Below are positions 60,401-64,000 of a stretch of 64,000 nucleotides of DNA, piece by piece (the stretch's first letter is position 1; every line of letters starts with the position of its first letter). The position numbers were made by a program. Location: assembly GCF_057098645.1 (NCBI RefSeq), contig NZ_CM169472.1. One strand, given 5' to 3'.

Positions 60401-63400
60401 AATCCCATTCATCAGGGTCTTTATCGCCGCCATAATCAAACAACAGATTAGTCACCATTGTGGTAACGCATTCCAGCAACACAACCTCATTCGGGTTAAT
60501 GTCTGCATGAATTAATTCATCAAGATGTTGCCAGCGCTCCACTGTGCGCCAGTGCTCCGGGCGGCCTTGCCGATGATGTTCTATCCGTGCAGCCATCTCA
60601 TCATCAAGGATTTGCGAGGTAGCGATATACAGAACCTGTGAAGAGTCCCCAATAAGCGCCTCTGCGTGGCGACTCTTCCCGCTCCGTGCGCCCCCCGTCA
60701 CCAAAATCATCATACCGACTCCTGATTCAAATGTATGATGGTATTCATTGAACAGAACAATGGATCCCCCACCGTTGCTGACCGCAAAACATTTACGCGA
60801 TTAATACTGCGCGTAATATAATTAAAAATCCAGCATTCTCAATCCATTACGAAATAAGATGGCATTACGGAATAGCCAGACTTTCTCGTGTTAACGTCCG
60901 ACAAAATGTGTCATTGACAGCGGTTTCTGTGGATTGACACATTTCATTCAGATAATGAATTAATGCTACTGCCGGACCAACCAGCAAACGGGCATTGTGT
61001 TCTGAAATCCAGGCTATTGATTCAACGTCAGCGACAGATCTGCGCTGTAAAAGAACTTGTAAAACAACGCAATAGAATTATCCGGAATGGTGGCGACTAT
61101 GCACTAGAACACCACAATTTCGCTCTCTCGGTAAGGCACTGTCACAGCATTCAACAGAATGTGACTTGCCAGATTTATTAGCGCCACCAGATGTTTAACC
61201 GGGTAACCACGACCCAGTCGGGGATATATTCCATCTTCTCGCTGACATCATCAAGAATAAAAAGGTTTATCACACTCAGAGCAACGTTCTTCAGCAGGCG
61301 GGATAATTCTTCAACATTTAAAAGATGTGTTATTAAAGGCATACAAACTGGACGTATTGTATTTTCTTTTGGTGGTTGACCTAAGGTAGCAGTTTATCCT
61401 GATGCGCTGAGATTTCTGTAATATCTACGTCAACATTCTCCTCGAATAGAAAATGCAGCCCCGGCAAGTGATTCACATTTTTTAACAAAACGTTGTTAGC
61501 GTGCCATTTTCAGAAGCTCTCCAAGAAAGCGAATTCTTTTCTCAAATTCTGCATTCTCAGACACAGCTTTCTACTCCATGGCAATGGCCCAAATACGAAG
61601 TTGCTCAGGATCATTAGTGGTGCTGAGAAGTTAAATAACCATGCGGAGTACCACTCGTCATCACGTATTTATATATCATGAAGCTATTGTTGTGTTTTGT
61701 ACATCAGTAGATGTATTCTGATATACTCCTTTTGCTAGACATAACCTTTCACCTGCTTGCAAAGCTTCTGTGTTCTGACATTGCCAAATTGTTGCAATTC
61801 TGTATCCAGCCTTCTTTCAGTCATAGCTTCGGGCCGCGATAAGACTCACTGATCTGACCCTGATTCCTCTTGCAGACTTTATAGACCAATTAAAATGCAG
61901 TTTCTGCAGGTCAACGTCTGACCATCATTGTCATCACTCTGGCCATTAGAGTAACCTTCTGCATTCATCCTTTTGTAAAAAGTTTATAGACTGGCCCCCT
62001 GAATCTCCAGACAACCAATATCACTTAAATAAGTGATAGTCCTGATACAAGTTTTTAGAGTAGTCATTAGTGAACAGATAATTGTTAACTTAGAACCAGT
62101 AAAATGCAAACGACGCACCACGCTGGGAAAATCGCTGCTATTCAGCAGAGTTTTGTACCGAGAATTGTGGCCAGCCACTTATTGCTCTCGCGTAAGCAGG
62201 TATCCCCATCGTTTACCAGTCCAGCACATCTTGTGGTCAGGCAGAAGAAGAGCAAACTGTTACTGGACTCACTGCATGCATGGTGGAGAAAAATGCCACG
62301 CTATCCAAAAATCCAGACTGGGAGAATGGTTCAGCTGTGTACTGAATCAGTGGGGCGCACTCTGTTATTACAGTGTTGACGGTCAGGCGGAGGCAGACAT
62401 AATGCCGCGGAAAAAGCCCTTTGTGCCATCTGTCTCGGAAATAAAAACTTTATGTTCTTCGGCGGCGAGCGCAGTGCACTGTTGTATGGGCTTATCGGCA
62501 CTTGCCTTCTGAACGACATTGATCCGGAAGCGTATCTGCGCCATATTCTGAGCGTACTGCCGGAATAACCTTCCAACCGTATTGATGAACTCCTGCCATG
62601 GAACGTAGTTCTCACCAATAAATAAGCATCAATATGATTCTCCATTAACGCTTACCTTTTCTCAGGCTATTTTTGCTTTTTTTTGCTTTTCCCCGCCACT
62701 TTATGGTGATTATCACATCAATATACATCGATAGATATTAACGTAACTGCAGTGAGGTGAAGCATGAAATTTGAACGCCATCATGAAATATTGAAACGAC
62801 TCAGTAAATTCGGTTCTGTAAAAGTATCCGATCTGTCCAATAGCCTCAATGTAACGAAAGAAACTATTCGTTCAGATCTTAATGAACTTGCCAGGCTTGG
62901 CTATCTGACTCGATGTCATGGCGGTGCTTTTATCGTCCTAGACTCGCTTGATACTATTGCGAAAAATGAAATCGCTTATGCGCTTGAAAATTATGATACA
63001 GCCCAGGGAATAAAAAAAGGCCACTCAACTATGAAAAGTCAAGTATGCGTTATTGGTTCGTTTAATGTTGATATCATCAGTTATTTGCCGAGGCTTCCCA
63101 CTATCGGAGAATCGCTTCTGGCAAGTAATTTTATATTTTCACCGGGGGGAAAAGGCTGTAACCAGGCGCTGGCAGCAAGCTTTGCCGATACTGATGTTTA
63201 TTTCATAACAAAAGTAGGTACAGATCACTTTAGTGATTATGCGATCAACTTTATGAATTCGTCTAAGATTTATAAAAGTATAATTTATCAAACGAAAGAA
63301 ACGCAAACCGAAACTGCCACGATCCTTGTTAATGAAGGTACTGGCGATAATGTTATTGCGATCTATCCCGGTGCCAACATGACAATGTCGTCCGATGAAA

Positions 63401-64000
63401 TAACTATTCAGAAAGAAGCGATTATTAATTCTGATGTCATACTTCTGCAGCTCGAAACAAATTATACCGCTCTGCAACAAGCGATCACATTGGCGCAAAA
63501 AAACAGTATCCCGGTCATTATTAACCCGGCACCCTATAATGATATCGTCAACGAACTTATTCAGGATGTTGATTATATCACCCCCAATGAAACAGAAGCT
63601 GGTTTACTGTCCGGCATAGACGTACACGATCTTGAATCAGCTAAACGAGCTGCAGAAGCTATCCACAATAAAGGGGTAAAAAACACGGTTATCACGCTCG
63701 GTAGCAAGGGCTCGCTCGCATTTGATGGCAAAAAATTCATTCATTCGCCAGCGTTTCCAGCGGTCGTTAAAAATACGGCAGGAGCCGGGGATGCGTTTAA
63801 CGGCTCTCTGGCATCAGGACTTGCGAAAGGAAAATCACTGGAATCAGCACTGTGTTATGCCAGCGCCTTTGCATCCCTAGCGGTGGAGACAAGCAATGCT
63901 TCCGACATGCCTGAACATGAATCTGTGATACATCGAATTCAGAGTATACATTATCAGCAAACTATTTTTACGCATTAAGAAGGGACAGAGAATGAATAAC

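Follow-up and report, generated by a model that had tools for sequence, protein, structure and literature searches.

The operon of the ribokinase RbsK is under a separate LacI-type repressor, RbsR, and the DeoR-family regulators AgaR, GlpR, FucR, SrlR, UlaR and DeoR carry a sugar-phosphate sensor, DeoRC, C-terminal to their DNA-binding HTH_DeoR domain. The closest described protein to the one studied here is RikA, the product of STM3547 of Salmonella enterica Typhimurium LT2 (McCormick, Jabbar and Escalante-Semerena, Mol Microbiol, June 2026; PMC13432705), which allows growth on ribose without rbsK and deoK. In vitro, Salmonella RikA is an ATP-dependent D-ribose kinase whose Km is 2 mM and whose kcat/Km falls about 50-fold short of that of RbsK; pentoses other than ribose are phosphorylated at rates 35 to 100 times lower, if at all, deoxyribose, xylose, xylulose and arabinose being hardly used, and a D343A change abolishes the activity (PMC13432705). 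Its authors, noting an 89-residue DeoR-type extension ahead of the kinase, proposed that translation starts at Met90, stated that more work was needed, and suggested that ribose phosphorylation is a side activity (PMC13432705). Here we analyze the corresponding gene near the end of a window of 64,000 nucleotides (contig NZ_CM169472.1 of RefSeq assembly GCF_057098645.1, one strand). By sequence comparison, the open reading frame (ORF) in the window is the E. coli orthologue of rikA; its kinase half is already known, and the gene is not new. As for the DNA-binding head, the published experiment suggested that it may not even be made. The explanation that we consider best, and somewhat more likely than not, is a self-regulating kinase-regulator, with a functional helix-turn-helix (HTH), a direct-repeat operator and the kinase as sensor, at the head of a riboside-salvage cassette.

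The first-pass annotation of the window had described one polypeptide joining a DeoR-type HTH to a complete ribokinase domain, and the Pfam search located both in one ORF of 404 codons. This ORF begins with an ATG, occupies a single + strand frame in the ORF listing and contains the peptides quoted in that annotation; the start given there, 62657, falls in the promoter region and had to be moved to 62764. The gene and its parts are the following.

62764..63978, + strand: rikA coding sequence (DeoR-HTH::ribokinase), from the ORF listing, Pfam and 80% identity to Salmonella STM3547/RikA.
62764..62937, + strand: winged helix-turn-helix domain, codons 1-58 (Pfam HTH_DeoR, residues 5-56).
62938..63030, + strand: linker, codons 59-89, poorly conserved and with a disordered tail (pLDDT, the per-residue model confidence, <50 at residues 76-90; variable alignment columns).
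63037..63909, + strand: PfkB/ribokinase domain, residues 92-382 (Pfam; phmmer against RbsK).
63790..63792, + strand: GAT codon of Asp343, the catalytic base (aligned to RbsK D255; D343A data in PMC13432705).

The Pfam match to HTH_DeoR (PF08220) has an E-value of 4.9e-15, and that to PfkB (PF00294) has an E-value of 4.1e-64 and covers model positions 2-298 of 302. When the N-terminal 89 residues were isolated, they matched the heads of AgaR, PRK09802, GlpR, FucR and other DeoR-family proteins in NCBIfam. The Pfam search gave no match to the DeoRC sensor domain (PF00455) in the rikA product, whose C-terminal part is PfkB; the protein therefore carries a DeoR-family DNA-binding head and is not a canonical member of that family. 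An AlphaFold2 model, built on 54 homologues and with a mean pLDDT of 85, predicts a winged HTH at residues 1-56 (H2-16, E18-20, H21-28, H32-44, E49-51, E54-56), a low-confidence helix at 64-80, disorder at 76-90 and, beginning with residue 93, a ribokinase fold, so that the N-terminal region would fold as the HTH that had been read from its sequence. The top Foldseek matches to this model are structures of E. coli RbsK, with a TM-score of 0.91 on the target. Foldseek with the same model found no PDB entry holding both the HTH and the kinase domains, and a sequence search found no solved structure for the HTH segment alone.

The assignment to the rikA orthologous group rests on full-length identity (80% to STM3547, with 100% coverage of all 404 residues) and on a gene order common to E. 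coli and Salmonella, in which orthologues of STM3548-3550 follow. RefSeq names the same 1215-nt coding sequence “rikA: ribokinase RikA” in E. coli NZ_CP135719. Salmonella RikA and the E. coli copy share the HTH-linker-PfkB layout, Met90, Asp343, the downstream genes and the promoter elements. The kinase part is also close to E. coli RbsK (PDB 1rkd, 1rk2 and 1gqt; phmmer E-value 6.9e-51 against 1gqt): the RbsK ribose-contact residues N14, D16, G41-G42-K43, N46 and E143 align with N101, D103, G128-G129-K130, N133 and E231, and catalytic D255 aligns with D343. Both PfkB signatures are present (GGKGCNQA, 128-135; TAGAGDAFNG, 338-347), and RbsK and the rikA product have the NPAP and TPNETEA motifs in common, although RbsK is only about 35-40% identical and has no DNA-binding domain. 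In NCBIfam, bacterial ribokinase is the closest model, with scores that stay under the curated cut-offs (279.9 bits against 299.65 for TIGR02152, and 249.1 against 341 for NF008353); a divergent subfamily would account for so small a gap. From the 80% identity and the conserved RbsK residues, the C-terminal 315 residues are predicted to be an ATP-dependent D-ribose 5-kinase.

The orthologous genes of eight genera (E. coli, S. enterica, S. bongori, Klebsiella, Citrobacter, Budvicia, Providencia and Pectobacterium cacticida) were compared, and the result suggests that the DeoR-type HTH is translated and functional. In a codon alignment of codons 1-58, the ratio of nonsynonymous to synonymous substitution rates (dN/dS) is 0.07-0.27 for the 7 of the 8 pairs that are unsaturated at synonymous sites (dS 0.5-1.8), and these codons contain no stop and no frameshift in any of the eight. 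For the kinase part, dN/dS was not computable for most pairs because synonymous sites are saturated, and dN was compared instead; in the closer pairs, the two parts have similar values, 0.09-0.16 for the HTH and 0.06-0.14 for the kinase part. Across 54 homologues with an overall identity of only 45-82%, eleven residues of the HTH never vary (R5, V21, V30, E33, T34, R36, D38, L39, R50, G53 and G54). Because dN/dS is low, the frame is open and these residues are invariant, an untranslated leader is unlikely. The role of a sugar-sensing regulator, doubted in print, is thus favored by the comparative evidence, which is indirect, and we regard it as the somewhat likelier outcome.

The DNA ahead of the gene is also conserved. 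We compared 13 upstream regions from at least ten genera and three downstream cassette types, anchored on a conserved pseudo-palindrome, and all 13 have the same layout: two 10-bp direct repeats, 12 nt, TATG[GA]-N6-TCAC[AT], 20-21 nt, TAnnnT, a Shine-Dalgarno (SD) sequence and the ATG. The window elements are listed here.

62670..62689, + strand: tandem direct repeat, TTTTTGCTTT twice, candidate operator for the rikA HTH (repeat search).
62702..62717, no strand assigned: CRP-like site TATGG-N6-TCACA, with two mismatches to TGTGA-N6-TCACA.
62739..62744, + strand: predicted -10 hexamer TAACGT (TAnnnT), from its position after the CRP-like site.
62754..62759, + strand: SD sequence GAGGTG for the annotated start, from predicted pairing with the 16S rRNA 3’ end.

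The 20-nt repeat pair is unique in the window even when 2 mismatches are allowed, with 0.01 occurrences expected by chance. The repeats are kept, exactly or with 1-2 base changes, in the eight genera, where the flanking intergenic DNA is unalignable, and each of the 13 promoters has related repeats in this register, with 12 nt between them and the CRP-like site; the Pectobacterium version is ACTTCCGTTT, also twice. Within the CRP-like site, the half-sites are conserved and the 6-bp spacer is variable across the 13 promoters. A single match of such quality is not significant, and it is from its conservation at a fixed position that we infer a CRP site. The TAnnnT hexamer lies 20-21 nt past this site in every promoter (21 nt in the window), and a consensus promoter scan ahead of rikA found no -35 match and no consensus -35/-10 pair. 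The spacing predicts a transcription start near 62751, which would give a 13-nt leader, and places the center of the CRP-like site near -41.5; together with the missing -35, this predicts a class II CRP-dependent promoter, which would suit a set of catabolic genes. In all eight same-cassette orthologues, the SD core reads TGAGGT and lies 4-7 nt ahead of the start (GTGAGGTG in six of them); its pairing energy with the 16S rRNA 3’ end is predicted to be -10.8 kcal/mol in the window and from -7 to -11.6 kcal/mol in the eight.

Two other explanations of the upstream block were considered. A terminator in the T-rich repeats was rejected, as there is no hairpin and no + strand terminator call, and a riboswitch or leader was dropped because 62400-64000 contains no credible Rfam RNA element. 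A search of metagenomes with the 20-nt repeat motif retrieved low-complexity T-rich DNA, which is uninformative on further targets of the regulator: among the matches listed, none of 125 was followed by the CRP-like site, the HTH or a PfkB gene. Several DeoR-family members, such as AgaR, bind T-rich tandem repeats, and FucR is an activator. Literature searches on the AgaR operator consensus and on HTH-ribokinase fusions returned nothing usable, and a likeness of the repeats to AgaR-type operators would be a lead only.

In the mechanism that we propose, the full-length rikA product would bind the two 10-bp direct repeats upstream of the CRP-dependent promoter of its own gene and cassette. Since the usual DeoR sensor domain is missing, the kinase domain would have to take its place as the ligand sensor. 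In ribokinase, the lid that closes over ribose also forms the dimer contact (RbsK structures cited in PMC13432705); sugar binding could then shift the relative position of the two tethered HTHs and alter their hold on DNA. The repeat pair is centered near -71.5, upstream of the CRP site, a position that would fit an activator or co-activator, or an anti-activator of CRP, better than a roadblock; the effect could be repression or activation, and a plain roadblock seems less likely. The form of about 35 kDa would arise either as a second isoform, started at an ancestral Met90 that has been kept, or by cleavage within the disordered linker. The rikA family as a whole would represent a self-contained switch-plus-kinase for pathways that free ribose from ribosides. 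It is important to note that, if the HTH is functional, the protein would be an unusual one-component regulator with a working PfkB kinase as its sensor, for which the comparisons supply a candidate operator of about 20 bp together with the predicted CRP-dependent promoter and transcription start.

Single polypeptides in which an HTH is joined to an enzyme or enzyme-like domain that reads a metabolite are known from BirA, NadR, PutA and the ROK family (NagC/Mlc), and ROK repressors have generally lost catalysis. The rikA product has this concept in common with them, but the folds and families are unrelated, and the kinase of RikA, at least in Salmonella, is active; it stands where DeoR-family regulators have their DeoRC domain. 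Another PfkB kinase with an N-terminal extension of DNA-binding type is YeiI of E. coli K-12, which is uncharacterized and groups with pseudouridine kinases (PMC9061257). Because of that grouping, and because only the kinase parts align (query 85-374 with YeiI profile positions 50-340, 43.7 bits), YeiI looks like an independent fusion.

Several points weigh against a self-regulating kinase-regulator. A Salmonella construct with the native 278 bp upstream and a C-terminal tag yielded only RikA of about 35 kDa, and RikA(90-404) alone complements for growth on ribose (PMC13432705). For every member of the family, DNA binding and the regulatory role are predictions from sequence. With its two mismatches, the CRP-like site could be a target of the HTH itself and not of CRP, and the T-rich repeats could be an UP-like element, against which the G+C-containing Pectobacterium version argues. 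Finally, an allele with a stop at codon 81, described below, is frequent in E. coli, and its carriers, at least, can do without the fusion. The 35-kDa result has limits of its own, as only clarified lysate was purified, full-length His-tagged RikA was reported to be insoluble, and the band was identified by trypsin digestion and mass spectrometry only, with no N-terminal sequencing described (PMC13432705).

The alternative that fares best, which we give a little better than one chance in three, is that two isoforms are made: a full-length regulator-kinase from Met1 and an abundant kinase from an internal ribosome-binding site at Met90. It would reconcile the 35-kDa product with the selection on the HTH. 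The codon concerned is the following.

63031..63033, + strand: internal ATG (Met90), at which the 35-kDa kinase-only form has been proposed to begin (PMC13432705, section 2.5; homologue alignment); as an ancestral start, it may be a relic or still in use.

Despite a linker that is otherwise variable, a Met stands four residues ahead of the VCVLGSFN motif in 81 of 96 full-length homologues, which fits Met90 as the inherited start of an ancestral stand-alone kinase. Most homologues have Met or GTG there, although members of the Providencia group lack the Met and have GTG or other residues instead. An SD-like AAGG, GGA or GAGG lies 8-12 nt 5’ of this position in all ten sequences read by eye, and the computed pairing always beats the ORF median, falling among the best 2-21% of in-frame positions, which is a moderate signal and, as the sequences are related, not independent evidence. 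In energy terms, the internal pairing is weak, at -3.2 kcal/mol in E. coli and -3.8 kcal/mol in Salmonella. Moreover, proteolysis in the disordered linker residues 76-90 would equally explain the 35-kDa product by giving the same band.

A second alternative concerns the substrate and turns on the neighboring genes. Past the end of the window, where the first-pass annotation had called for inspection of the downstream genes, RefSeq places after rikA a GATase1_like gene, a DMT_YdcZ transporter gene and a PTE-family hydrolase gene, and the same set of four genes is found in the eight genera. The final bases of the window had been taken for the first gene of a further acquired operon; they do contain a gene start, but it is that of the second gene of this conserved cassette.

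63992..64000, + strand: start of the GATase1_like gene (ATGAATAAC), converted to window positions from the RefSeq coding sequence at L001 17293-18051 (L-numbers denote the compared sequences).

The GATase1-like protein is the orthologue of STM3548 and matches PDB 2gk3 with an E-value of 4.9e-144. The PTE-family protein is close to Pmi1525 of Proteus (PDB 3rhg/4qsf), for which only a promiscuous esterase activity has been reported (PMC5341072). A conserved hairpin with an 8-bp stem, GGAGTAAC...GTTACTCC, lies between the GATase1-like and transporter genes (L001 18052-18107 and L002 9993-10045); a T-run comes after it in Salmonella, and a perfect TATAAT in E. coli. Partial termination or an internal promoter may be its role, which would agree with the two-operon prediction of BioCyc quoted in PMC13432705.

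The fusion also heads two other cassette types. One, with a nucleoside hydrolase and a nucleoside transporter, occurs in a second Salmonella group and in Gilliamella; the other, with a DHDPS-family aldolase, a DUF386 protein and an MFS transporter, occurs in Rahnella and Pectobacterium (L008 9310-12238, L009 9257-12048), with the same promoter and fusion. None of the three cassette types contains another regulator gene. What is constant across the family is the promoter and the fusion gene, and what varies is the downstream genes, in three sets; a regulator travelling with its own operator is the simplest reading of this pattern. A more specific proposal, that the conserved unit is a portable one-gene switch (operator, CRP promoter and HTH::ribokinase with a Met90 isoform) placed before at least three riboside gene sets, is tentative, and we would not wager on it at even odds.

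According to the second alternative, the kinase acts on, and senses, a furanose-like intermediate produced by the GATase1-like and PTE-family enzymes instead of ribose, the phosphorylation of which would be a side activity. The low efficiency with ribose of the Salmonella enzyme, the scores under the curated ribokinase cut-offs and the presence of three partner genes without a known role would agree with it. Yet all aligned ribose-binding residues of RbsK are conserved, other pentoses are poor substrates or none, and the sister cassettes pair the fusion with a nucleoside hydrolase and a transporter, from which free ribose is expected; we consider a non-ribose substrate rather unlikely. Since the nucleoside hydrolase of the sister cassettes frees ribose, ribose phosphorylation is taken to be the genuine last step of the rikA cassette too, and not a side activity. 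If the HTH is functional, the ribose kinase activity would be the real last step of the pathway, and the search for the substrate of STM3548-3550 would narrow to ribose-releasing compounds. The cassette is carried by about a third of complete E. coli genomes.

A third alternative, which we judge improbable, is that the protein is a kinase only: it would start at Met90 and be a third ribokinase, and the 89 codons upstream would be untranslated or a vestigial remnant of a DeoR gene. The published recovery of the 35-kDa product as the sole form, the full complementation by RikA(90-404) (PMC13432705) and the conservation of Met90 are in its favor, as is the persistence in E. coli of the alleles stopped at codon 81, from which gene callers emit a 315-aa product. 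In these alleles (L007 418-420, L098), codon 81 has changed from CAG to TAG, at the position corresponding to 63004-63006 of the window, together with C51Y, leaving an 80-aa HTH ORF and a 315-aa kinase ORF. They form a sizeable E. coli lineage, to which a Shiga-toxin-producing O103:H2 strain belongs; the cluster of the 315-aa kinase has 825 member sequences, and the copy of E. coli O103:H2 strain 129 is annotated as a pseudogene. On the other side, the dN/dS of the HTH, its open frame in eight genera and its 11 invariant residues would be unexpected in untranslated DNA, the strong conserved SD is at Met1 and not at Met90, and the purification would have been blind to insoluble or DNA-bound full-length protein.

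The window strain has changes of its own, one of them in rikA.

63310..63312, + strand: Glu183 codon GAA, allele-specific (Gly in all 53 other aligned homologues).

Gly183 is kept in E. coli TUM1226 and O103:H2. The residue is on the substrate-side strand, two residues ahead of the one aligned with Ala98 of RbsK, and the G183E change may weaken the kinase of the window strain. Its DMT_YdcZ gene (L001 18108-19073), interrupted by a stop at codon 203, carries a pseudogene annotation, and other E. coli (L007, L097 and L098) have the gene intact. Given the stop at codon 81, G183E and the stop in the transporter gene, the cassette is not under uniform selection in E. coli, and the rikA copy of the window itself may be impaired.

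The remaining possibility, a sequencing or assembly frameshift that joined two genes, has nothing in its favor other than the existence of split alleles, which carry a single CAG-to-TAG point mutation and no frame difference, and it can be dismissed because several independent complete genomes match the window with 100% identity over 3.3 kb and a fusion of the same length, 402-406 aa, recurs in many genera. Of 5426 complete E. coli genomes, 1951 have the gene, and the carriers of the cassette include Nissle 1917 and several Shiga-toxin-producing (STEC) lineages; outside E. coli, the fusion is found in Salmonella, Klebsiella, Citrobacter, Budvicia, Providencia, Pectobacterium and others. A HMMER search with residues 1-156 over 1.84 billion cluster representatives returned about two dozen full-length clusters spanning the HTH and the start of the kinase, and the named members belong to the Enterobacterales and Orbaceae. 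A contig scan with generic ribokinase motifs (GGKG[CA]NQA, GAGDAFNG) found nearly only plain ribokinases, with HTH fusions in L010 and L011 alone.

The gene order around the cassette was taken from the RefSeq annotation of E. coli O145:H28 RM12761, which is 100% identical over the 3.3 kb tested. After cobU come a stub of a cobalamin gene, an IS4-family and an IS66-family insertion sequence (IS) fragment, rikA and the rest of the cassette; past the PTE-family hydrolase gene, there is a 293-bp 3’ stub of ggt and then a dead ISL3. The debris on the left is as follows.

61017..62568, no strand assigned: IS debris as the left edge of the island (RefSeq and megablast).
61017-61205, no strand assigned: IS4-family fragment (RefSeq pseudogene annotation).
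About 61987-62160, no strand assigned: IS2-like stretch, 83% identical to the IS2 transposase (megablast).
62230-62568, no strand assigned: IS66-family fragment (RefSeq pseudogene annotation).

The IS2-like and IS66-like remnants that had been noted after cobU are thus both present, along with the IS4-family fragment. The AT-richness reported for the ORF was borne out as well, as its GC content is 41.5%, whereas the window as a whole has 48.2% and the cob genes have about 51%; in 7 of 7 other hosts, the flanks of the cassette are less AT-rich than the cassette itself, and in E. coli the same is true of the adjoining cob genes. Horizontal acquisition, as the first-pass annotation had proposed, agrees with this composition, with the location of the cassette at different E. 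coli sites between the same IS66 and ISL3 fragments, and with the 3’ piece of ggt carried along.

The collinearity between E. coli and Salmonella starts at about 62669, exactly at the direct repeats, and runs to 284 bp into ggt. The 293-bp ggt stub (L001 20150-20442) is 84-86% identical to Salmonella ggt and has the same relative position. The Salmonella cassette is flanked by a yhhY-like acetyltransferase gene and an intact ggt, whereas the E. coli copy, which also differs by Glu183 and the stopped transporter gene, lies in an IS-bounded island by cobU and retains the ggt stub only. The collinearity through the stub and the intact ggt beside the Salmonella cassette indicate that the E. coli island was cut from a locus of the yhhY-ggt type. 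In E. coli TUM1226 (NZ_CP135719 1337216-1343848), the IS66 stub, the rikA cassette, the ggt stub and the dead ISL3 are at another chromosomal site, adjoining dicarboxylate transporter and aspartase genes, so the whole block has moved within E. coli.

The remains of IS and integrative elements that follow cobU are what a recombination hot spot would leave. Directly 3’ of cobU, at 60865-61008, RefSeq has a 144-bp partial “cobalamin biosynthesis protein” gene, a leftover of a longer cob/cbi operon lost by E. coli. Genes for tRNA-Asn are known as integration sites of islands. Upstream of the cob genes, the window contains three of them, at 52976-53051, 54800-54875 and 57209-57284, among yeeO, cbl, nac and ldtA in the RefSeq annotation.

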